Below, piece by piece: positions 12,256 through 39,012 of a stretch of 64,000 nucleotides of DNA. Source of the DNA: Escherichia phage PNJ-9; the sequence record PQ100635.1; one strand, written 5' to 3'. Position 1 is the stretch's first letter; the number at the start of each line of letters is the position of its first letter. A program made the position numbers and the translations under genes. The notes under the pieces are model-generated. The model was not told the DNA's origin and searched no databases. It was given only the letters and a program-made list of their open reading frames with translations.

Positions 12256-12715
12256 AAACTATATCAAGGGCGATATTGTCGCCCTGTTTTCTAAAGGTAA
12301 TAATATTGCTCATGGGTGTAATTGTTTTCATACAATGGGCGCTGGTGTGGCAGGACAATTAGCAAAGGCTTATCCAAAAATTTTAGAAGCCGATAAACTT
12401 CAAACCGAATTCGGTGATGAGACTAAACTCGGGACTTATTCGGTTTATGAAAAATATTTTAAGACCCATAAAGCTTATTGCTTTAATCTTTATACACAGT
12501 TTGAGCCGGGACCTAATTTTGAGTACTCTGCTTTAATGAATTGTATAATAGAATTAAATGAATTCGGAAAGAATAAGATAACAAAGCCTGTAATTTATAT
12601 GCCAAGAATTGGTGCAGGTATCGGTGGTGGAAACTGGGATGTCATCGAAGAGATTTTAGATACGTATTCCACTAAACTAGAAATTGTGATTGTTGATTGG
12701 GAACCGTTATTATGA
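12218..12715 (+). CDS. macro-domain protein (ADP-ribose binding/processing)
   Basis: Macro signature NIAHGCNCFHTMGAGVAGQLAKAYP and GAGIGGG; non-ATG (TTG) start on track, true start uncertain. Confidence 0.6.
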   Translation: MTLIIEDLQQVIKNYIKGDIVALFSKGNNIAHGCNCFHTMGAGVAGQLAKAYPKILEADKLQTEFGDETKLGTYSVYEKYFKTHKAYCFNLYTQFEPGPNFEYSALMNCIIELNEFGKNKITKPVIYMPRIGAGIGGGNWDVIEEILDTYSTKLEIVIVDWEPLL

Positions 12716-12924
12716 ATATACATTATCCACATCCATATGACCCAAAGAATAAGGTAGTAATTATTCGTCAATGGGAACGCATTTGTCGTACCAAATGTCC
12801 AATTAATAGTCCACATGATGTAGATAAAGACTACATCGGAACATTCGTTGAATATACCTTTATTGATAAGAAAGGTCGTAAACAGCATGTAGAAGAATAC
12901 TGCTTAAAGGTGACATGGTTATGA
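12712..12924 (+). CDS. hypothetical protein
   Basis: ATGA overlap. Confidence 0.5.
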   Translation: MNIHYPHPYDPKNKVVIIRQWERICRTKCPINSPHDVDKDYIGTFVEYTFIDKKGRKQHVEEYCLKVTWL

Positions 12925-13106
12925 GTTTAAGTAAAGAACAAAAAGACAAACTCTTTTCTCTTATCCACGAAGTTATGGATAAAAATAGTGAATTGGAAAA
13001 AGTTTGTAATGAATGCGGTCCTTTTAGTGCAAACGAGTACGAAGAACTTTCTAAAGAATTCGATAATAAAGAACAAGAACTTATTAATTATATAAATTCC
13101 TTATGA
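12915..13106 (+). CDS. hypothetical small acidic protein (paralog pair)
   Basis: ORF track; resembles next ORF (EQK..LF.L..E pattern). Confidence 0.5.
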   Translation: MVMSLSKEQKDKLFSLIHEVMDKNSELEKVCNECGPFSANEYEELSKEFDNKEQELINYINSL

Positions 13107-13291
13107 TTACTCGCGAACAAAAGAACGAAATATTATTTTTAGTTGGTGAAATTATTAGTTTAGAAAAGGATTTGTCTTTTGAAATATCTTCTGAATATGG
13201 AGATGCCGAAACATATTACGAATTAGTAAAATCTATCGATAAAGCTGAAAATGATTTAAAAACATATTTAGAAAATTTAACTAAGGATTAA
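13103..13291 (+). CDS. hypothetical small acidic protein (paralog pair)
   Basis: ORF track; ATGA overlap. Confidence 0.5.
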   Translation: MITREQKNEILFLVGEIISLEKDLSFEISSEYGDAETYYELVKSIDKAENDLKTYLENLTKD

Positions 13292-13292
13292 A

Positions 13293-13874
13293 ATGGCTAG
13301 TTTAATTTTTACATATGCCGCTATGAACGCTGGTAAGTCTGCTTCATTACTTACAGCCGCACATAACTATAAAGAACGTGGCATGGGTGTATTAGTTCTT
13401 AAACCGGCTATTGATACTCGCGATTCAAAAGGTGAAATAGTCTCTCGTATTGGTATTCGTCAGGACGCCAATATAATTACAAAAGACATGGATATCTTTG
13501 AATTCTATAAATGGGCTGCAGCACAAAAGGATATTCATTGTGTATTTGTTGACGAAGCTCAATTCTTAACTACTGAAAAGGTGTATCAACTTAGTCGTAT
13601 TGTTGACGTATACAATGTGCCGGTAATGGCATATGGACTACGAACAGATTTTAAAGGTAATCTATTTGAAGGTTCTCAAGCATTAATGGCTATTGCCGAT
13701 AAGCTTGTTGAACTTAAAGGTGTCTGTCATTGCGGTAAAAAGGCCACAATGGTAGCTAGAGTCACGGAAGACGGACTTCCAATTACAGATGGCAGTCAAA
13801 TTGAAATTGGTGATACTGATAGATATGTGTCATTATGCCGGAAGCATTGGAATGATTTGACAGGGTTGTTATAA
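13293..13874 (+). CDS. tk: thymidine kinase
   Basis: P-loop AAMNAGKS, FVDEAQF Walker B, C-terminal CxCG...C zinc site; 193 aa as T4 Tk. Confidence 0.93.
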   Translation: MASLIFTYAAMNAGKSASLLTAAHNYKERGMGVLVLKPAIDTRDSKGEIVSRIGIRQDANIITKDMDIFEFYKWAAAQKDIHCVFVDEAQFLTTEKVYQLSRIVDVYNVPVMAYGLRTDFKGNLFEGSQALMAIADKLVELKGVCHCGKKATMVARVTEDGLPITDGSQIEIGDTDRYVSLCRKHWNDLTGLL

Positions 13875-25038: not shown

Positions 25039-25512
25039 ATGTTATTATCTGGCAAATTATACAAAGAAGAAAAACAAAAATTTTATGATGCACAGAATGG
25101 TAAGTGTCCTATTTGCCACCGTGAATTAGACCCTGATGTTCAAGGTAACCATCTTGACCACGACCACGAATTAAACGGGCCAAAAGCAGGTAGAGTTCGT
25201 GGGTTACTCTGTAATCTGTGCAACGCAGCAGAAGGCCAAATGAAGCATAAGTTCAACCGTTCCGGTCTTAAAGGACGTGATGTCGACTACCTCGAATGGC
25301 TTGAAGCTCTTCTTGCTTATTTGAAACAAGATTATTCTGATAATAATATCCATCCTAATTTTGTTCCAGACAAAACTAAAGAGTTCTCAAGACTAGGTAA
25401 AGAGGAAATGATGGCTGAGATGCTTCAAAGAGGATTTGAATATAATGAATCTGATACCAAAACACAATTAATAGCTTCATTCAAAAAGCAGCTTAGAAAG
25501 AGTTTAAAATGA
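25039..25512 (+). CDS. 49: endonuclease VII (Holliday junction resolvase)
   Basis: MLLSGKLYKEEKQKFYDAQNGKCPIC...HLDHDHELNG matches T4 gp49; 157 aa. Confidence 0.95.
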   Translation: MLLSGKLYKEEKQKFYDAQNGKCPICHRELDPDVQGNHLDHDHELNGPKAGRVRGLLCNLCNAAEGQMKHKFNRSGLKGRDVDYLEWLEALLAYLKQDYSDNNIHPNFVPDKTKEFSRLGKEEMMAEMLQRGFEYNESDTKTQLIASFKKQLRKSLK

Positions 25513-26046
25513 AAATTGAAAAAGAAATTGAAGGATTAATTCATAAAACTAATAAAGATCTTTTGAACGAGAATGCTAATAAAGATTCTCGTGTTTTTCC
25601 AACTCAACGGGACCTTATGGCTGGTATTGTGTCTAAGCACATTGCCAAAAATACGGTCCCGTCTTTTATTATGAAAGCACATGAAAGCGGAATTATCCAT
25701 TTCCATGATATTGATTATTCTCCTGCTCTTCCATTTACTAATTGCTGTTTAGTCGATTTAAAGGGGATGCTTGAGAATGGATTTAAATTAGGCAATGCTC
25801 AAATTGAAACGCCTAAATCGATTGGTGTTGCTACTGCAATTATGGCACAAATTACTGCGCAGGTTGCTTCCCATCAATACGGTGGAACTACATTTGCGAA
25901 TGTAGATAAAGTCCTTTCTCCTTATGTTAAACGCACCTACGCAAAACATATTGAAGATGCAGAAAAATGGCAAATCTCTGATGCGTTGAATTATGCCCAA
26001 TCTAAAACAGAAAAAGATGTCTATGACGCGTTCCAGGCGTATGAGT
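25509..26046 (+). CDS. nrdD: anaerobic ribonucleotide reductase NrdD, exon 1
   Basis: Class III RNR N-terminal region; frame interrupted at 26046 by group I intron. Confidence 0.85.
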
Positions 26047-27079
26047 TAATTTAATTCAGGCTCATGTAAAACCGGTCTAAACGGGGAACCTCTCTAGTAG
26101 ACAATCCCGTGCTAAATGTTCTTTTGAACTAAATGCCTAACGACTAACCGTGATGAATGTAGCGGTGTAGAATAGAAGCTAATGCTATTCGAAACGGCCG
26201 GCATCGAAAGATGAAGATATAGTCTAATCTGCATGGCGACATGCAGCAGTCATCTTGTATAAATAAGATTATCTTATGAATACGAGGTGAAACAATGAAA
26301 TGGATAAAAAGACGTTGTACTAAAATAAAAGATAAAGACGCATTTACATACTTAGTTAAGTTTTCTAATGGTGACATTTATATCGGTTATAAAAAATTTA
26401 GAACAATTAAAAACAAGCCCACAAACTGGAAAACTTACACAACGTCATCTAAGTATATAAATGAACGCTTAAAAACTGATACACCTACTAAATGGATAAT
26501 TTTAAAAACATTTGATAGTTATAAAGATGCATTAAAACATGAAGAAGAGGTCATACGTAAATATTTTTATAGCAAAAAATGTTTAAATAAATCCATAGGC
26601 GGTAAAAAGTTTTATAAGCATCCGGATACTGAAGAACATATTCAAAAATTAAGAGATGCTCATAAGGGTAAAGTGTTATCCGAATCTCATAAAAACAATA
26701 TAAAATCTTCTGTAGCTGAATATTATGCTAAAAACGGAAGATCTAAGGAACATGTGCAAAATAATATCAATAGTCGAAAAAGTAAAAAACAAGTATCGAT
26801 AAAGCTTAAAAATAAAACTTTTAGAAGTTTTAAAAAAGCAGCGGAATATTTAAATTGCACTGAAAGTGAAGTCGAAACTCATCCTCTTGTTTTGAGTATT
26901 AAGACTACTATTCATAAAGTTCCTGAATATGTGGTTGTTGACGGTATTAAGTATACGTCTTATATAGAAGCAGCTAAAGCGCTAAATTTTCATCCTAGCA
27001 CTATAAAAGAACGTTGCATATCTATGGACTATCCAAATTTTGTTGTTTCATATAAACGGGCATGAATTTGCGACTCATG
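26047..27079 (+). mobile_element. group I self-splicing intron in nrdD (T4 sunY/nrdD-type), 1033 nt
   Basis: P1: exon UAUGAGU pairs with GCUCAUG with U.G at splice site; conserved core CTAAACGGGGAACCTCTCTAGTAGACAATCCCGTGCTAAAT; P10 CUGAAU pairs with AUUCAG; omega G at 27079. Confidence 0.85.
26295..27065 (+). CDS. intron-encoded GIY-YIG homing endonuclease (I-TevII-like)
   Basis: GIY-YIG-like FTYLVKFSNGDIYIGY; lysine-rich, AT-rich; located 3' of intron core. Confidence 0.8.
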   Translation: MKWIKRRCTKIKDKDAFTYLVKFSNGDIYIGYKKFRTIKNKPTNWKTYTTSSKYINERLKTDTPTKWIILKTFDSYKDALKHEEEVIRKYFYSKKCLNKSIGGKKFYKHPDTEEHIQKLRDAHKGKVLSESHKNNIKSSVAEYYAKNGRSKEHVQNNINSRKSKKQVSIKLKNKTFRSFKKAAEYLNCTESEVETHPLVLSIKTTIHKVPEYVVVDGIKYTSYIEAAKALNFHPSTIKERCISMDYPNFVVSYKRA

Positions 27080-28371
27080 CTGAATATAATGATGAAGTAA
27101 ATACACTTTTCAGCTCTAATGGACAAACGCCTTTTGTAACAATTACATTTGGCACGGGAACTGACTGGACTGAACGAATGATTCAGAAAGCAATTCTGAA
27201 AAATCGTATTAAAGGTCTTGGCCGTGACGGGATAACTCCTATTTTCCCTAAACTTGTTATGTTCGTTGAAGAGGGTGTCAATCTTTATAAAGACGACCCG
27301 AACTACGATATTAAGCAGCTTGCTTTAGAATGCGCAAGCAAAAGAATGTATCCTGATATTATTTCAGTTAAGAACAATAAAGCTATTACTGGTTCTTCAG
27401 TTCCTGTTTCTCCGATGGGCTGTCGTAGTTTCTTGAGCGTATGGAAAGATTCGACTGGTAATGAAATTCTTGATGGACGTAATAATCTTGGTGTTGTAAC
27501 ACTGAATCTTCCTCGTATTGCATTAGATTCTTATATTGGAACACAATTCAATGAACAGAAATTTGTTGAGCTATTTAATGAACGAATGGATCTGTGTTTT
27601 GAAGCTTTGATGTGTAGAATTAGTTCTTTAAAGGGTGTTAAAGCAACTGTAGCTCCTATTCTTTACCAAGAAGGTGCATTCGGGGTTCGTCTTAAACCTG
27701 ATGACGATATAATTGAGTTATTTAAAAATGGTAGAAGTTCAGTGTCCCTAGGATACATTGGTATTCACGAATTGAATATTCTTGTCGGACGTGATATTGG
27801 ACAGGAAATTTTAACTAAAATGAATGCTCGTCTTAAGCAGTGGACTGAAAGAACCGGTTTTGCTTTTAGTTTATATTCTACTCCTGCTGAAAACCTTTGT
27901 TATCGCTTCTGTAAACTTGATACAGAAAAATATGGAAGTGTAAAAGATGTCACCGATAAAGGCTGGTACACTAACAGTTTCCACGTTTCAGTAGAAGAAA
28001 ATATTACTCCATTTGAAAAGATTTCTCGTGAAGCCCCATATCATTTCATTGCAACAGGCGGTCACATTTCTTATGTTGAACTTCCAGATATGAAAAATAA
28101 CTTAAAAGGTCTTGAGGCTGTCTGGGATTATGCTGCACAACATTTAGATTATTTTGGTGTTAATATGCCAGTAGATAAATGTTTTACATGTGGAAGTACT
28201 CATGAAATGACTCCTACTGAAAACGGATTTGTTTGTTCAGTTTGTGGAGAAAGTGATCCTAAAAAGATGAACACCATAAGAAGAACATGTGGTTATTTGG
28301 GAAATCCGAACGAACGCGGATTTAATCTCGGTAAAAATAAAGAAATCATGCATAGGGTTAAACACCAATGA
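27080..28371 (+). CDS. nrdD: anaerobic ribonucleotide reductase NrdD, exon 2
   Basis: Continues frame after intron; C-terminal Zn site CxxC...CxxC and glycyl-radical region RTCGYLG. Confidence 0.85.
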
Positions 28372-32272: not shown

Positions 32273-32830
32273 ATGACTGAACAAAAACCTAAAAATAACT
32301 ATGTGAATAATAAAGAGCTTCTCGCCGCTATAATCGAGTGGAAAAAGGAGCTCTTAAATAATAAAGACCCAAACAAAATTATTCGTCAGAATGATACCAT
32401 CGGTTTAGCAATTATGCTTATCGCCGAAGGCCTGTCCAAACGTTTCAACTTTTCAGGATATACCCAGTCTTGGAAGCAGGAGATGATTGCAGATGGGATT
32501 GAAGCCTCTATTAAGGGACTTCATAATTTCGACGAAACTAAGTACAATAACCCACATGCATACATAACTCGAGCTTGTTTTAATGCTTTTGTCCAACGTA
32601 TCAAAAAAGAGCGTAAGGAAGTTGCAAAGAAATATAGTTACTTCGTTCATAACGTCTACGACAGTCATGACGATGATATGGTAGCGTTGGTAGATGAAAC
32701 GTTTATTCAAGACATCTACGATAAAATGACGCATTATGAAGAATCCGCTTATAAAGCTCCTGGGGCTGAAAAGAAGGAAGTTGTTAGCGATTCGCCTAGT
32801 TTGGATTTTTTATATGAGGATGACAATTGA
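32273..32830 (+). CDS. 55: late-transcription sigma factor gp55
   Basis: [35 protein letters not shown]...[29 protein letters not shown] matches T4 gp55; 185 aa. Confidence 0.93.
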
Positions 32831-33029
32831 CATCTCTAACTACTTAGAAGAACCTTTTGACGAAGCAATCCCTTATTTGGTAAAACTGTTGGGTCGTGAA
32901 TTTAAAATTAATTTTGACATCGACCCTTTGAACCCACATGACGTGTCATTTTCGATAAATGGGACTCCGGTTGAGTATGAGTTCTGTATTGAAGAGGATG
33001 GACGTTTTTATTTTAATTTAATGAGATAA
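32814..33029 (+). CDS. hypothetical protein
   Basis: Internal ATG of ORF 32736-33029 overlapping end of 55. Confidence 0.45.
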
Positions 33030-33030
33030 T

Positions 33031-33354
33031 ATGACTACCGAGATTATTGAAAATAAAGAAGCAGAAGATGCAGTAGCTAAAATGCTACAAGAAATCCAAA
33101 AGAAAAATGAAGCTGAAGCACGTAAAAAATCCGAAAAGATTCTTAAAAAGAATCGTTTTGAGCTAAACCGTCTTTATGCTCATGCTCAAGAAGCAGCAAT
33201 TCAAAACAACTTCGAAGCTTACGAATATGCTATTAAGAAATCTCGGGATATTCTACGACAACCATATAATGACAAGTTAATTAAAATCCAGTGGGTTACT
33301 ACTCGTCAGGCTATTGAGGACATCATTAATGGCGCTAGTTCAAACAAAGTTTAA
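33031..33354 (+). CDS. hypothetical coiled-coil protein
   Basis: Lys/Glu-rich. Confidence 0.5.
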   Translation: MTTEIIENKEAEDAVAKMLQEIQKKNEAEARKKSEKILKKNRFELNRLYAHAQEAAIQNNFEAYEYAIKKSRDILRQPYNDKLIKIQWVTTRQAIEDIINGASSNKV

Positions 33355-33535
33355 ACGTCTTAATCTGAACGCAGGATTCACCCTTAAATTGGGAGGTCCT
33401 CTTTGTGTTAAAATTTCCGAAAAGGAATATCACGACGGTTCTATTACAGAAATTTGTCCGCCTATTGTAAAGGCAGACCCAAAACAACTCGTGTGGGTCG
33501 ATTCATTTCAAGTTAAGAAATGGTGGAAACGATGA
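33329..33535 (+). CDS. hypothetical protein
   Basis: ATG 33329 with GAGGA upstream; ORF track 33314-33535. Confidence 0.4.
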   Translation: MALVQTKFKRLNLNAGFTLKLGGPLCVKISEKEYHDGSITEICPPIVKADPKQLVWVDSFQVKKWWKR

Positions 33536-33574
33536 GAGAAATCGATTTAGGCATTTTCTGAGAGGTGCTTATGC

Positions 33575-33748
33575 ATGACGAACATCCCGACTTCTGAAAA
33601 TTTCGATAAAATCCGTAAAGGCAAAGCAGAAAGAATGAGACGTTTTAAAGAGTCTTATGATAAAGCTAAAGCCGAAGGAACTATTACATACAAGCCCATT
33701 CGATTTAAAAGTTCAAATGAGCCTCTGTACGGTGTACTATGTGGATAG
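33575..33748 (+). CDS. small basic protein (57 aa), not on ORF track
   Basis: ORF ends at the stem of a strong intrinsic terminator. Confidence 0.35.
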   Translation: MTNIPTSENFDKIRKGKAERMRRFKESYDKAKAEGTITYKPIRFKSSNEPLYGVLCG

Positions 33749-33771
33749 GAACTCTTCGGAGTTCCTTTTTT
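33748..33771 (+). terminator. intrinsic terminator
   Basis: GGAACTC-TTCG-GAGTTCC then TTTTTT. Confidence 0.7.
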
Positions 33772-33817
33772 GCTTTATAAACGGATGATAGAATGAATTA
33801 ACTAATGAGGAAATAAT

Positions 33818-34837
33818 ATGAAAATTTTAAATTTAGGTGATTGGCATTTAGGCGTTAAAGCTGATGATGAGTGGGTTCAATCAATCCAGTTGGATGGAAT
33901 TAAGCAGGCGATAGAATATTCTAAGAAAAATGGAATTACTACATGGATTCAATACGGCGATATTTTTGATGTGCGAAAAGCAATCACGCATAAAACTATG
34001 GAGTTCGCACGTGAAATAGTTCAAATGCTTGATGATGCTGGTATTACCCTACATACTGTTGTAGGAAACCATGATATGCACTTTAAAAATACTTTAACTC
34101 CAAACGCTTCTACTGAGCTTTTAGCTAAATATCCTAATGTTAAAGTATATGATAAGCCTACTACAGTAGATTTTGACGGATGTTTGATTGATTTAATTCC
34201 TTGGATGTGCGAAGAAAATACTGGTGAAATTCTTGAACATATCAAAACTTCATCTGCTTCTTTTTGTGTTGGGCACTGGGAACTGAATGGTTTTTATTTC
34301 TATAAAGGAATGAAGTCTCATGGGCTTGAACCTGATTTTTTAAAGACCTATAAACAAGTCTGGTCCGGCCACTTCCACACAATCTCTGAAGCTGCTAACG
34401 TCAAGTATATTGGGACACCATGGACCCTTACTGCAGGTGATGAAAACGACCCGCGCGGATTCTGGGTATTTGACACTGATGTTGAACGTATGGAATTTAT
34501 TCCTAATGAAACAACATGGCATCGACGAATCACTTATCCGTTTAAAGGCAAAATCAATTATTCTGATTATACTAATCTAGCCTTACGTGTTATAGTATCA
34601 GAAATTGATTCAGAGTTGACTAAGTTTGAATCTGAACTTGAAAAAGTAGTTCACTCTCTTCGTATGGTTTCTAAAGTTGATAACAGTGTTGAATCTGATG
34701 ACGACCAGGAAATCGAGATTAAATCACTTCAAGATATCATTAAAGAATATATTGACGCGATTCCAGATATCTCAGACGAAGACAGAGAAGCGCTGGTCAA
34801 ATATTCCAACGAACTTTATATTGAGGCAACACAATGA
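33818..34837 (+). CDS. 47: recombination nuclease subunit gp47 (Mre11-like)
   Basis: Calcineurin-like phosphoesterase motifs LGDWHLG, GDIFD, GNHD; 339 aa as T4 gp47. Confidence 0.92.
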   Translation: MKILNLGDWHLGVKADDEWVQSIQLDGIKQAIEYSKKNGITTWIQYGDIFDVRKAITHKTMEFAREIVQMLDDAGITLHTVVGNHDMHFKNTLTPNASTELLAKYPNVKVYDKPTTVDFDGCLIDLIPWMCEENTGEILEHIKTSSASFCVGHWELNGFYFYKGMKSHGLEPDFLKTYKQVWSGHFHTISEAANVKYIGTPWTLTAGDENDPRGFWVFDTDVERMEFIPNETTWHRRITYPFKGKINYSDYTNLALRVIVSEIDSELTKFESELEKVVHSLRMVSKVDNSVESDDDQEIEIKSLQDIIKEYIDAIPDISDEDREALVKYSNELYIEATQ

Positions 34838-35085
34838 CTTTAGATGAATTTAACAATGCTGGACTCAGGCTTGAAGTTGAAATGGACGTTAAAGATGATG
34901 ATGGATTCGAGAACACTATCAAGTATTGGATTGAGCCATTACGCGTTGAAGGCAATGAAGTTAAAGCAGTTCATGTCTGCACTGACTGGGCTATTGAATT
35001 TAGCTTTAATATAATGGACAACGATACTCCTGGCTCTATTCTTAAAATGGCTGAAGCGTGTATTGAGGATGCATATAATGACTAA
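34834..35085 (+). CDS. hypothetical acidic protein
   Basis: ATGA overlap. Confidence 0.55.
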   Translation: MTLDEFNNAGLRLEVEMDVKDDDGFENTIKYWIEPLRVEGNEVKAVHVCTDWAIEFSFNIMDNDTPGSILKMAEACIEDAYND

Positions 35086-35938
35086 GACTGATTATGAAAC
35101 TCAAATTTATAAAATTCTTAAAACCTCCTTCCCTTCGTGGGAAGGACTTGATGAGTATTTAAACTTTATAAAAACTAATTCCACTAATAAAGTAAAAGGA
35201 CTGACTCAGGTTCACCATATACTACCAAAATCTATTTTTCCAGATTTTAAAACATGTAAATGGAACTTGTGTCATTTAAGTCATTATAACCATTTTATTG
35301 CACATAGCATTTTGGCAAAAACTGGCAACCACAAGATGATTAACGCGCTTCAAAGAATGTATACCGGGCGATTTAATTTAAATTGTACAACGCATGAACT
35401 AAATAATATAGCCGAGGCGTATTCTTTAGAATTCGAAAATGTTTGTAAAGTTAATTCTATAAAAATGACATTATACTATTCCAATCAGGATAATAGAATT
35501 AAGATTAGTCAAGCTTTAAAAGCATGGTTTAAAAATCCGGAAAATTTAAAGAAACACAGAATTATGACAAGTTCAAAGGAATTTAAAGAAACCGTCTCTA
35601 TTATGACCCAAAAGTGGTTTAGTGACCCTATTAATAAACAAAAACATTTGGATGCTTGTCGTAAAATATCTAAAACAGCCGAATATAGAGAATCATTATC
35701 GGCTGGAGTTTCACGCAGTTGGAAAAATCCTAAAGTTAGAGACACTCATTTGAAATCTAGAAGAAAAGGATATCATTGGGAAAATTTTGATATGCTTTAC
35801 GTTGAATGGGTTAAAATGAACAAACCTAAATATGTGACTTTTTCTAAAAATTTAGTCAATTTAGGATATCCTATACAAAGTTCTTTACAGGCTTTAGTTT
35901 CTGAATTCATGAGGAAAAATTTAAGTGAAAACATTTAA
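35078..35938 (+). CDS. freestanding HNH homing endonuclease (Mob-like)
   Basis: HNH motif VHHILPKS...N...H..H; repeated W-x-NP-x-K modules; AT-rich; inserted between 47 and 46. Confidence 0.75.
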   Translation: MTKTDYETQIYKILKTSFPSWEGLDEYLNFIKTNSTNKVKGLTQVHHILPKSIFPDFKTCKWNLCHLSHYNHFIAHSILAKTGNHKMINALQRMYTGRFNLNCTTHELNNIAEAYSLEFENVCKVNSIKMTLYYSNQDNRIKISQALKAWFKNPENLKKHRIMTSSKEFKETVSIMTQKWFSDPINKQKHLDACRKISKTAEYRESLSAGVSRSWKNPKVRDTHLKSRRKGYHWENFDMLYVEWVKMNKPKYVTFSKNLVNLGYPIQSSLQALVSEFMRKNLSENI

Positions 35939-37613
35939 ATTAAATCGTGTTCGTTATAAAAATATAATGTCTGTTGGGCAAAATTTTATCGATATCCAAT
36001 TAGATAAAGTCCAAAAGACCTTAATCACAGGTAAAAATGGTGGTGGTAAATCTACGATGTTAGAAGCCATTACTTTCGGACTTTTCGGTAAACCATTTCG
36101 TGATGTTAAGAAAGGGCAAATCGTTAACAGCACGAACAAGAAAGAGCTCTTAGTTGAGCTTTGGATGGAATTCGATGGTAAAAAATACTTCATTAAACGT
36201 GGCCAAAAGCCCAATATTTTCGAAATCTCCGTTGACGGTGTTCGTCTTGATGAATCTGCCAGCAGTCGTGACTTCCAAGAAGAATTTGAACGCAGCATCG
36301 GAATGTCATACGCGTCTTTTAAACAAATCGTTGTGCTTGGGACGGCAGGGTATACCCCTTTCATGGCTCTTAGCACCCCTGCTCGTAGAAAACTTGTCGA
36401 AGACCTTTTAGAAGTCGGCACACTCGCTGAAATGGATAAAATCAATAAGTCTCAAGTTCGAGAACTTAATTCCCAGGGACAAGTTCTCGATGCCAAGAAA
36501 GATGGCGTTATCCAACAAATTAAGATTTATAACGAGAATATCGAACGTCAAAAGAAATTATCTGGTGATAATGTAGCGCGCCTACAGAATATGTATGACG
36601 ACCTAGCCAAAGAAGCTCGTTCATTAAAAGCAGAAATCGAAGAAGCTAATGAGCGACTACTTAATATCGTTCTTGATGAAGACCCTACTGAGGCATTCAA
36701 CAAGATAGGACAAGAAGCATTCTTGATTAAATCTAAAATTGACTCGTATAACAAAGTTATTAAGATGTATCATGACGGTGGTACATGTCCTACTTGTGCG
36801 TCGCAATTGCACCAGGGTGATCCTATTGTCTCTAAGATTACCGATAAGCTTCACGAATGTAATCACTCATTCGAGCAACTTACATGTCACAGAGATAATC
36901 TGAGTGTCCTAGTGGACGAATATAGAGCTAATGTTAAGACTAAACAGGACCTTGCATCTGATATTCGTACCAAGAAACAAGCAATGATTGCCACTATTGA
37001 TAAAGCTAAGAAAGTTAAAGCTGCAATAGAGCAAGCCTCAGCAGAATTTATCGACCATGCCGATGAGATAGCTTTGCTTCAAAAAGAACTTGATAAAATC
37101 ATTAAAACAAAATCTGATATCGTTCTTGAAAAATACCATCGTGGTATTATCACAGATATGTTAAAAGATTCTGGTATTAAAGGTGCTATCATTAAAAAAT
37201 ATGTGCCTCTGTTCAACAAGCAGATTAACTATTATCTTAAAATCATGGAAGCTGATTACGTGTTTTCTATTGACGAAGAATTCAATGAATCTATAAAATC
37301 ACGTGGTCGTGAAGATTTTAGTTATGCTTCATTTAGTCAAGGTGAAAAGGCACGTATCGATATCGCATTGTTGTTTACATGGCGAGATATTGCTGAAAAA
37401 GTCTCCGGTGTTAAAATCAACACTCTGATTCTTGATGAGGTTTTTGATGGTGCTGTCGATTCTGAGGCTGTTAAGGCTATAGATACCATTCTTGGAAGTT
37501 TACAAAATACTAATGTGTTCATTATCTCTCATCGAGACCATGACCCTCAGCGGTATGGACAACATCTTCAGATGAGCAAAGTTGGACGATTTACGGTAAT
37601 GACTGTTTCATAA
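35925..37613 (+). CDS. 46: recombination ATPase gp46 (Rad50/SbcC-like)
   Basis: Walker A GKNGGGKST, long coiled coil with CPTC zinc hook, Walker B LILDEVFD; N-terminus as T4 gp46. Confidence 0.93.
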   Translation: MKTFKLNRVRYKNIMSVGQNFIDIQLDKVQKTLITGKNGGGKSTMLEAITFGLFGKPFRDVKKGQIVNSTNKKELLVELWMEFDGKKYFIKRGQKPNIFEISVDGVRLDESASSRDFQEEFERSIGMSYASFKQIVVLGTAGYTPFMALSTPARRKLVEDLLEVGTLAEMDKINKSQVRELNSQGQVLDAKKDGVIQQIKIYNENIERQKKLSGDNVARLQNMYDDLAKEARSLKAEIEEANERLLNIVLDEDPTEAFNKIGQEAFLIKSKIDSYNKVIKMYHDGGTCPTCASQLHQGDPIVSKITDKLHECNHSFEQLTCHRDNLSVLVDEYRANVKTKQDLASDIRTKKQAMIATIDKAKKVKAAIEQASAEFIDHADEIALLQKELDKIIKTKSDIVLEKYHRGIITDMLKDSGIKGAIIKKYVPLFNKQINYYLKIMEADYVFSIDEEFNESIKSRGREDFSYASFSQGEKARIDIALLFTWRDIAEKVSGVKINTLILDEVFDGAVDSEAVKAIDTILGSLQNTNVFIISHRDHDPQRYGQHLQMSKVGRFTVMTVS

Positions 37614-37650
37614 ACGCTTTAACATGATGTGGTTATAATGACCACATCAA
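37613..37650 (+). promoter_or_regulatory. middle-promoter-like element (MotA box + -10) with inverted repeat
   Basis: AACGCTTTA, 12 bp, TATAAT; IR GATGTGGT/ACCACATC. Confidence 0.5.
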
Positions 37651-37667
37651 ATTAAATGGAGAACAAC

Positions 37668-37856
37668 ATGGAGTATTCAACCGGGCAACATCTTCTCGTT
37701 GTCCCTGAAATTAAAAAATATGTTTTGACCAATACGTTTTCAGGTGAAGAACATATTGTTACCGAACAAATGCTCAAATCTGCTTTTAAAGATGAGTATA
37801 ATAAAATAATGTCTAATCGCAATTCCGCATGGACAGTTACCGACTTCTACGAATAA
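37668..37856 (+). CDS. hypothetical protein (T4 45.2 position, 62 aa)
   Basis: ATG after GGAG; size and position fit T4 45.2. Confidence 0.55.
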   Translation: MEYSTGQHLLVVPEIKKYVLTNTFSGEEHIVTEQMLKSAFKDEYNKIMSNRNSAWTVTDFYE

Positions 37857-37868
37857 GAGAGAAATAAT

Positions 37869-38285
37869 ATGTTTACTACTGCTAAAGGTTTCACTGCTGC
37901 TGATCTGAAAGTTACTTCTATCCGTACTGACGCTAACCCACATAACCATAATCGTGTTCGTAAAGCATGGGTCCTGCATTGTGATGACGCAAGTGCTAAA
38001 AAACTCCAATCTTTGCCACAAGAAACTCGTTTTATGATTTATGGTTTTATTGATAATGATGTATCTGATATGTGGATTCATCTGATGCGTAAGCACTATA
38101 AAGATTCTATTGAAGCCGGCGGAAAAATCGTTCTTGATAAAGATGGTTCTGAACGTCTGGAAGATTTCTATTGTGTTGATGCCGACGAACAACTAATTGC
38201 AGCTGGCGAAATTGTTGCTTCTAAAATTCCAGAATATATTGAATCACTGCCTGAAGCTATTAAAAAGCAAATGGTTGCTGCATAA
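37869..38285 (+). CDS. hypothetical protein (position of T4 rpbA)
   Basis: GAGAGAAA upstream; function assigned by synteny only. Confidence 0.5.
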   Translation: MFTTAKGFTAADLKVTSIRTDANPHNHNRVRKAWVLHCDDASAKKLQSLPQETRFMIYGFIDNDVSDMWIHLMRKHYKDSIEAGGKIVLDKDGSERLEDFYCVDADEQLIAAGEIVASKIPEYIESLPEAIKKQMVAA

Positions 38286-38325
38286 TAAATTTGTTAAACT
38301 TTGAATTGTCTTGAAAGGAAATAAA

Positions 38326-39012
38326 ATGAAACTGTCTAAAGATACTATCGCTATTCTGAAAAACTTTGCCTCTATTAACTCTGGCATTCTGCTGAGTCAA
38401 GGTAAATTTATTATGACTCGTGCAGTTAATGGTACCACTTATGCGGAAGCAAATATCTCTGATGAAATTGATTTTGACGTAGCACTTTATGATTTGAATA
38501 GCTTCTTAAGCATTTTGAGTCTAGTGTCTGATGATGCTGAAATTTCAATGCACACCGATGGCAATATTAAAATTGCAGATACACGTTCCACGGTTTATTG
38601 GCCTGCCGCTGACAAGAGCACCATTGTTTTTCCTAATAAGCCAATTCAATTCCCAGTGGCTTCTGTGATTACTGAAATTAAAGCTGAAGACCTTCAACAA
38701 TTGCTTCGAGTTTCACGTGGTCTTCAGATTGATACAATTGCTATTACAAATAAAGATGGTAAAATTGTTATCAATGGCTATAATAAAGTTGAAGATTCCG
38801 GACTAACTCGTCCTAAGTATTCTTTGACTCTTACCGATTATGATGGTTCTAACAACTTTAACTTCGTAATCAATATGGCTAATATGAAAATTCAGCCGGG
38901 TAATTATAAAGTAATGTTGTGGGGAGCTGGTGATAAAGTTGCAGCCAAGTTTGAAAGCCCTCAAGTAAGTTATGTTATTGCGATGGAAGCCGATTCTACT
39001 CACGACTTCTAA
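38326..39012 (+). CDS. 45: sliding clamp gp45
   Basis: MKLSKDTIAILKNFASINSGILL... near-identical to T4 gp45. Confidence 0.95.
   Translation: MKLSKDTIAILKNFASINSGILLSQGKFIMTRAVNGTTYAEANISDEIDFDVALYDLNSFLSILSLVSDDAEISMHTDGNIKIADTRSTVYWPAADKSTIVFPNKPIQFPVASVITEIKAEDLQQLLRVSRGLQIDTIAITNKDGKIVINGYNKVEDSGLTRPKYSLTLTDYDGSNNFNFVINMANMKIQPGNYKVMLWGAGDKVAAKFESPQVSYVIAMEADSTHDF

Follow-up and report, generated by a model that had tools for sequence, protein, structure and literature searches.

A predicted MobD-like HNH homing endonuclease gene in place of gene 46.1 in Escherichia phage PNJ-9

Escherichia phage PNJ-9 (PQ100635.1) carries an open reading frame (ORF) for a protein of 286 amino acids just ahead of the recombination gene 46, within the 64,000-nucleotide stretch of its DNA that was analyzed here (the window). 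A preliminary description of the window had proposed that this ORF encodes a freestanding HNH homing endonuclease. Our analysis puts the probability at about 0.8 that it is an active or recently active freestanding homing endonuclease gene of the T4 Mob type, which was copied into the phage by break repair together with a resistant 5' end of gene 46, with deletion of gene 46.1. The proposal is supported by the intact conserved residues of the protein, its similarity to MobD and to PHROG 655, the sporadic presence of the gene among relatives, the near invariance of the cassette in which it lies, and a linked patch of altered sequence in gene 46.

Distribution and boundaries of the cassette

The 47-46 region of the window is that of a Mosigvirus (JS09/RB69-like; 93 to 98% identity). 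At a DNA identity of at least 90% across the region, the endonuclease was found in nine of about 154 Mosigvirus-like records (pEK20, AV112, AV113, 172859UKE1, SQ17, phiEC1, G2469, and two records of F2), always at the same site and with a protein at least 99.7% identical to that of the window. The great majority of the records aligned in two pieces, with gene 46.1 in place of the endonuclease. Conservation of the gene at this site in all relatives, the outcome that the preliminary description had named as counting against homing, was therefore rejected by the comparison of the 47-46 region. GenBank labels the near-identical proteins variously as MobD-like homing endonuclease, HNH endonuclease, mobile endonuclease, or hypothetical protein.

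In an alignment of the window and seven other carriers with six non-carriers (region 32800-39000), all 82 fixed differences between carriers and non-carriers fell inside the cassette (Table 1), where non-carriers have the 240-bp gene 46.1 (DUF5487). At the left edge, carriers and non-carriers both read ATGAC(G/T)AAGACTGATTATGAAA, the opening of 46.1 (its start codon and initial seven codons), so that the MTKTDYE at the N terminus of the endonuclease is borrowed. A tblastn search of the window with JS09 gp46.1 recovered residues 1 to 7 only, at 35078-35098; relocation of 46.1 elsewhere in the window was thus rejected, its first seven codons being the sole remnant. The right edge of the swap lies within gene 46, at codon 22.

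The cassette has no start signals of its own and uses the Shine-Dalgarno sequence, ATG, and first seven codons of 46.1. In the best explanation, the endonuclease is translationally coupled to gene 46.2, whose stop is overlapped by the 5' end of the endonuclease ORF by 8 nucleotides. The 3' end of the ORF overlaps the GTG start of gene 46 by 14 nucleotides, and the 3' end of the cassette supplies gene 46 with this new start and with a new Shine-Dalgarno sequence (GAGGA, 35911-35915). GTG is also the start of gene 46 in T4. Both neighbors of the endonuclease gene, 46.2 and 46, are intact ORFs, and an Rfam scan detected no intron at the locus; the gene is freestanding. Its guanine-plus-cytosine (GC) content is 30.0%, compared to 36.8 ± 2.0% across 861-bp windows of the stretch, of which just 0.6% reach a value as low. 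This is a foreign composition, and it was counted in favor of homing. The AT-rich ORF of the preliminary description is thus real, with the same coordinates, and the overlap with the stop of the upstream gene is as it had been described, that gene being 46.2. The placement between genes 47 and 46 is correct as far as it goes; more exactly the ORF lies between 46.2 and 46, and rather than simply occupying an intergenic gap it replaces 46.1 and rewrites codons 1 to 22 of gene 46.

Within the cassette, 10 of 891 sites (1.1%) varied among eight carriers, with 99.4 to 100% pairwise identity, whereas the flanks of the same eight phages varied at 372 of 3,460 sites (10.8%) and had pairwise identities of 92 to 98%. 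The nearest flank relatives of the carriers were all non-carriers (AV117 for the window, DCP548 for pEK20, and SSE1 and PhAPEC2 for AV112 and 172859UKE1); at least three or four distinct backgrounds thus contain the cassette. Because the cassette is near-invariant, the flanks have diverged, and the nearest flank relatives of the carriers lack the gene, these comparisons indicate that its spread was recent and horizontal. The presence of one cassette in several backgrounds is the behavior of a driven element and is hard to explain by descent.

The same data bear on the possibility that the gene is a relic that no longer cuts, either inactive and too young to have decayed or domesticated for DNA binding or regulation near the 46/47 operon, and that it was spread by ordinary homologous recombination. 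Homing endonuclease genes do decay, as illustrated by a T2 homolog that is split in two (see below) and by the defunct I-TevIII of T4 (PMC2988022). The flanks are similar enough for ordinary recombination to move the cassette, and the promoter and start signals that the cassette may give gene 46 could favor its retention. However, all five catalytic-motif residues are intact, and the ORF is full length, with the protein identity given above, in eight phages from four countries (Korea, Denmark, Germany, and China), with the frame kept in all carriers. Furthermore, the ten DNA variants are all singletons, none of them disruptive, and the uniformity of the cassette would be hard to account for without drive when the flanks differ by up to 8%. 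A relic is thus considered unlikely.

Two other features of the region were observed in the same alignments. The 5' half of gene 47 (33793-34293) and the 3' end of gene 46 (37393-37650) are only 81 to 90% identical among Mosigviruses, compared to 97 to 100% for the rest of the operon; these are mosaic segments, found in carriers and non-carriers alike and unrelated to the endonuclease. Owing to a G-to-T change, the window and AV117 have a stop of 46.2 (TAA, 35083-35085) that precedes by six bases the one used in the other aligned Mosigviruses (TGA, 35089-35091); the change also affects codon 3 of the endonuclease, where it is synonymous (ACG to ACT).

Table 1. Features of the 47-46 region of the window (positions in the 64,000-nucleotide stretch)
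Feature	Position	Strand	Description	Basis
Terminator-like hairpin and MotA-box-like motif	33747..33794	+	Hairpin 33747-33766, then middle-promoter motif 33771-33794, before gene 47	
Gene 47	33818..34837	+	Mre11/SbcD-like nuclease subunit	Pfam Metallophos; annotations of relatives
Gene 46.2 homolog	34834..35085	+		Pfam T4_Y03C, E=6e-43; JS09 annotation gp46.2
Borrowed 46.1 start	35065..35099	+	Shine-Dalgarno GAGGA (35065-35069, 8 nucleotides before ATG), ATG, and seven codons (MTKTDYE)	
MobD-like HNH homing endonuclease ORF (predicted)	35078..35938	+	ATG to TAA (35936-35938), 286 amino acids	ORF listing
Swapped cassette	35100..35990	+	891 bp, compared to about 270 bp in relatives without the gene; 29.7% GC	
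Predicted HNH (putative beta-beta-alpha-metal) nuclease core	35204..35317	+	Residues 43-80: H46, H47, N63, H72, H76	
Three helical repeat modules	35489..35749	+	Residues 138-224, ending W-x(0,1)-x-(N/D)-P-x3-K/R-x-(K/T)-H	Motif scan
C-terminal domain	35771..35911	+	Common to T4 MobD (GYHW-x-NFD-x-LY-x-W-x-K-x-N-x-PK...LGYP)	Alignments with T6, Melville, and T4 MobD
Internal MotA-box-like motif	35793..35817	+	TGCTTTA-N12-TAAAAT within the endonuclease ORF, 132 nucleotides before gene 46	
Gene 46	35925..37613	+	Rad50/SbcC-like ATPase subunit	Pfam AAA_23, SMC_N, Rad50 zinc hook
Endonuclease-linked variant of gene 46	35925..35990	+	First 22 codons; 14 fixed differences	

The predicted nuclease and its domains

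The HNH core consists of V45-H46-H47-I-L-P-K-S, N63, H72, and H76, with the spacing HH-x15-N-x8-H-x3-H. Among 120 homologs recovered by profile search, H46, H47, I48, H72, and H76 were invariant, and N63 was present in at least 90%. The HNH motif reported in the preliminary description is thus present; the HxxH that it listed is likewise there (H69-Y-N-H72), but H69 is variable across the wider family, and the true metal-binding pair is H-x3-H (HFIAH). In colicin E9, a classical HNH nuclease, a His-His pair that ends strand 1 is followed by a structural Asn and the metal-binding His of the helix, in the order HH...N...H-x3-H, and the spacing in the window protein matches that of such nucleases.

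The protein matched PHROG 655 (homing endonuclease; E=4.5e-31) and could be aligned with T4 MobD at 29% identity over 241 amino acids (residues 43 to 277, E=4e-20), the C-terminal domain included; a match to MobB was confined to the HNH core (residues 43 to 81). From these similarities, it appears to belong to the Mob (HNH) homing endonucleases of T4, with MobD as its closest relative. The T4 Mob proteins belong to group 1, the main HNH group, of the His-Me finger superfamily (PMC5714182). An initial word-indexed homolog search recovered 15 proteins and missed the T6 homolog, so that profile searches were needed. In an exhaustive HMMER search of a library of 1.8 billion proteins, 2,660 cluster representatives were found at E≤0.001 and only two at E≤1e-30, and the broad family is accordingly large and the subfamily of this endonuclease small. 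The window protein was 100% identical to P0001, the cluster that includes the protein of phage G2469.

Pfam and NCBIfam scans of the protein found no HNH family at E≤0.1 and no NUMOD, only noise (GerD and DUF1543). T4 MobD likewise has no NCBIfam match, and among the 120 homologs weak contact was seen with PF01844 in three and with PF14279 in two; the Mob-type core is not covered by curated HNH profiles. A profile search of PDB sequences gave no match. Since AT-rich sequence, although few of its frames lack stops by chance, can give long ORFs and no Pfam family was matched, a chance open frame or annotation artifact was also considered. The 2,660 homologs, the invariance of the catalytic residues, a confident fold prediction for the whole protein (mean predicted local distance difference test score [pLDDT], 85), and the preservation of the frame in every carrier reduce the chance of an artifact to a negligible one, and homology and conservation together exclude it.

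Following the core, the motif scan detected three repeat modules (150-WFKNPENLKKH, 180-WFSDPINKQKH, and 215-WKNPKVRDTH), in agreement with the repeated W-x-NP-x-K modules noticed earlier, in the form W-x-(N/D)P. The structure model places helices at residues 137 to 231, with a pLDDT above 90 up to about residue 200. The helical repeats are presumed to bind DNA as beads on a string. NUMOD3 (PF07460) did not match the window protein and was present in the repeat region of 16 of the 120 homologs; the W-x-(N/D)P repeats are a module different or diverged from NUMOD3. The C-terminal domain, for which model confidence is low (pLDDT, 50 to 60), is also presumed to bind DNA. A Foldseek comparison of the full-length model with the PDB gave no significant match, the top rows being teneurin with a probability of 0.2.

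Some distant homologs of the HNH core (P0069, P0074, and P0091) lie inside proteins of 640 to 835 amino acids that also match the N-terminal domain of the T4-type large terminase (PF03237), so endonuclease genes may have been inserted into terminase genes or fused with them.

Expression and the candidate target in gene 46

The MotA-like motif ahead of gene 47 is conserved in JS09, AV117, and pEK20, and with the preceding hairpin, which is conserved in relatives as well, it forms the putative start of a 47-46.2-endonuclease-46 transcription unit. A search for T4 late promoters (TATAAATA) found none near the endonuclease ORF. With a promoter motif ahead of gene 47 and no late promoter near the ORF, the endonuclease gene appears to be a promoterless member of the unit, and several T4 mob and seg genes have likewise been described as promoterless (PMC2988022). 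A scan for sigma-70 promoters performed no better than shuffled sequences, and the search for MotA-box-like patterns over the window gave 17 matches compared to 3.3 expected. An RNA hairpin that sequesters the ribosome-binding site, as for mobE, was considered and rejected, the folding of 35035-35125 being nonsignificant (z=-0.57). The MotA-like motif inside the ORF has the same position in the homolog of Salmonella phage Melville and another position in those of T6 and T2, and no such motif precedes gene 46 in phages that lack the endonuclease. Gene 46 may have an embedded middle promoter here.

The part of the cassette that extends into gene 46 provides a candidate for the target. Carriers read GTG AAA ACA ... 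TAT AAA AAT ATA ATG TCT GTT GGG CAA AAT TTT ATC, and six of six aligned non-carriers read ATG AAA TCA ... TAT CAA AAC ATC ATG TCG GTA GGT GGG AAT CCT ATT; over codons 12 to 22 there are 12 substitutions, with three amino acid changes. A similar pattern was found in Gelderlandviruses: codons 11 to 21 of gene 46 are of the carrier type, AAT AT(A/T) ATG TCT GTT GGA CAA, in those that carry a homolog and in a metagenomic T4-like contig (L021), compared to a CAA AAC ATT ATG TCA GTG GGC GGT type in non-carriers, and the divergent patch again ends at codon 21 or 22. By its position, the patch is a candidate cleavage-resistant allele that would mark the position of the target in endonuclease-free phages. 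Linkage, the sole ground for placing the target near the 5' end of gene 46, gives that placement about even odds.

The patch was also matched at 98.6 to 100% in five Mosigviruses outside the nine endonuclease records (G2285, WFL6982, WFK, ESCO47, and PTE-Eco05). Comparison of the sequences of two of these, G2285 and WFL6982, showed that both keep 46.1; gene 46 starts with the non-carrier ATG AAA TCA in WFL6982 and with ATG AAA ACA in G2285. Possible sources of the patch-only phages are short conversion tracts, loss of the endonuclease, or the native lineage in which the endonuclease first settled. In each case the patch behaves as a separable unit, which fits, without proving, the role of a cleavage-resistant allele.

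The mechanism that we propose would operate in a cell coinfected by a carrier and a non-carrier Mosigvirus. The helical repeats and the C-terminal domain of the enzyme would bind it to a long, asymmetric site, and it would nick or cut the non-carrier genome in or close to the 5' end of gene 46, with codons 12 to 22 or thereabouts (the non-carrier sequence TAT CAA to CCT ATT given above) as the most likely position. The break would then be resected and repaired from the carrier genome, and the repair would copy in the endonuclease gene with the adjacent resistant codons 1 to 22 of gene 46 and delete 46.1. Nuclease activity, the position of the target, the choice between nicking and cutting, and the promoter are points that we infer. 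The T4 enzymes MobA and MobE nick their targets and are preferentially inherited (PMC2988022).

Several points weigh against this explanation. The position of the target is read from linkage only, and the patch, less than 100 bp from the gene, could simply hitchhike. Its sharp right edge may reflect the resolution of recombination in the highly conserved sequence beyond, and the patch, being found in endonuclease-free phages too, may be a natural polymorphism of older date. The conserved codons (M/L)-L-Y...(I/V)-K-M could account for the internal promoter motif as a by-product. A search of the literature did not find a biochemical or genetic test of the protein or its close homologs.

The gene 46 site in other genera and comparison with known systems

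Homologs lie directly upstream of gene 46 in three genera (Tequatrovirus, Mosigvirus, and Gelderlandvirus), with different junctions. That of T6, 45% identical over 90% of its length, is located between 46.1 and 46, as in many other Tequatroviruses. Compared to T4, the T6 element (870 bp) is inserted cleanly behind codon 6 of gene 46 and is flanked by the 9-bp repeat TTTAAACTT. Its ORF opens with GTG-AAG-AAT-TTT-AAA-CTT (MKNFKL), taken from gene 46, which in turn receives a new ATG-AAA-TCA start from the element. The T2 copy (1432-2284 of L020) is split, apparently by a frameshift, into two ORFs of 615 and 258 bp. This copy, in a classic laboratory phage, seems to be decaying, a stage of the usual life cycle of homing endonucleases. 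T4 itself has no homolog at the site upstream of gene 46, in line with the preliminary description, but T6 and T2 carry one at the same place, so the site is not new for T-even phages. In Gelderlandviruses, a homolog of about 56% identity lies directly between 47 and 46 in Melville and three other phages; at a threshold of at least 90%, the search found it in 5 of 16 records (four distinct phages), and STML-198, S16, and others lack it. The metagenomic contig has a homolog of 54% identity at the same place.

From these comparisons, one MobD-like subfamily may have specialized on the first 25 or so codons of gene 46. It would have reached three or more genera through different junctions, in each case borrowing the local start and bringing a replacement 5' end and perhaps a middle promoter, and the codon 12 to 22 patch would be a transferable immunity allele that circulates also without the endonuclease. 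We advance this idea tentatively, at somewhat less than even odds. If true, gene 46, which encodes the Rad50-like subunit of the nuclease that itself processes the breaks made in homing, would be an unrecognized marker-exclusion hotspot in crosses of T6 with T4 or of carrier with non-carrier Mosigviruses.

The location of the gene inside a recombination-nuclease operon also raises the possibility that it is mainly a weapon or accessory nuclease, which cuts the DNA of competing phages or of the host or aids recombination-dependent replication with gp46/gp47, homing being incidental. T-even homing endonucleases are known to cause marker exclusion of relatives (PMC2988022), and side benefits are possible, as in one account of SegB amplifying anti-defense loci (PMC13096335). 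However, most Mosigviruses do without the gene, it replaces part of the operon rather than adding to it, and the linked patch and the conserved site in three genera point to a specific target in gene 46 instead of a role as a general nuclease. Such a primary function seems quite improbable, and it overlaps with, rather than excludes, the freestanding homing endonuclease that we favor.

Additional loci of mobile-nuclease type or low GC content were observed. In G2469 and F2 (L009 and L010; 6811-7527, minus strand) and in G2285 (L022; 4285-5001), an ORF of about 238 amino acids, annotated as a homing endonuclease in F2, lies directly after gene 46 on the opposite strand; mobile nuclease genes thus flank gene 46 on both sides in those phages. 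This ORF is absent from the window, where 45.2 follows gene 46. Elsewhere in the window, a low-GC (27 to 29%) ORF of 256 amino acids (26295-27065, plus strand) with GIY-YIG (Pfam SegE_GIY-YIG, E=7e-6) and NUMOD1 domains lies between two halves of an nrdD-like anaerobic ribonucleotide reductase gene, at 25509-26054 and 27040-28371. The layout of 25509-28371 resembles that of the T4 nrdD intron with I-TevII, and an Rfam scan at gathering thresholds detected no group I intron at this locus. A second low-GC region (about 30%; 12700-13400) has small ORFs only and lies just upstream of a thymidine-kinase-like ORF (13293-13874).

Genes of this kind are already well known, and proteins identical to that of the window are labeled MobD-like homing endonuclease in GenBank. 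In the literature, we found no paper on this locus, on its boundaries, on the patch-only phages, or on the conserved gene 46 site of several genera. Homing endonuclease genes were reported to be absent from RB69 (PMC2993671), and the present colonization of RB69-type phages, the Mosigviruses, is a minor update of that picture. The locus offers a well-delimited natural case of intronless homing in T4-like phages. Its boundaries are base-exact, an essential recombination gene holds the candidate target and immunity allele, and phages with and without the gene can already be paired from collections (for example, AV112 and AV113 versus AV117, from one study). It also shows how an operon can take in a cassette that lacks start signals and still keep its translational coupling. 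Its practical value, as a candidate nicking or cutting enzyme with a long site and as a recombination marker among therapeutic Mosigviruses, is modest, and the general understanding of homing is unchanged by this case.

Among known systems, T4 MobD is the most similar. It is encoded by a freestanding, presumptive HNH homing endonuclease gene that lacks a promoter of its own and has the same orientation as its neighbors (PMC2988022), features that the window gene shares. The two proteins have in common the HNH core HHI(L/I)P...N...H-x3-H, the helical repeats, and the C-terminal G(Y/K)HW...D-x-LY-x-W-x-K-x-N-x-PK...LGYP. However, mobD lies in the nrdC region, between nrdC.11 and mobD.1, rather than at the 46.1/46 junction, and the window ORF has an additional N-terminal helical pair (residues 5 to 34) and a borrowed start. 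With only 29% identity between the two proteins, the DNA specificity of the window enzyme is presumably different.

The T6/T2-type endonuclease (T6 YP_010067209, annotated as a homing endonuclease) is like the window gene in its position directly before gene 46 and in borrowing a local start. T6 keeps 46.1 and has no linked substitutions downstream, whereas in the window 46.1 is replaced and codons 1 to 22 of gene 46 are rewritten.

T4 MobE is an HNH enzyme that nicks nrdB, is preferentially inherited, and drives the trans homing of the I-TevIII intron (PMC2790892; PMC2988022). Like the window gene, mobE encodes a Mob-type HNH core, is freestanding, overlaps a neighboring essential gene, and targets a conserved gene beside its own insertion site, as predicted for the window enzyme. 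MobE is the best experimental model for how the window enzyme probably works, although tblastn matches to mobE-annotated genes are confined to the HNH core (about residues 7 to 96) and the target gene is a different one. T4 SegF and SegG, freestanding endonucleases that cause localized marker exclusion and coconversion (PMC2988022), have the GIY-YIG catalytic fold, unrelated to the predicted HNH fold of the window protein. Similar behavior would be expected of the window gene, namely, cleavage in a neighboring conserved gene with coconversion of flanking markers, and by analogy the linked patch in gene 46 looks like a coconversion tract of the SegF/SegG type.
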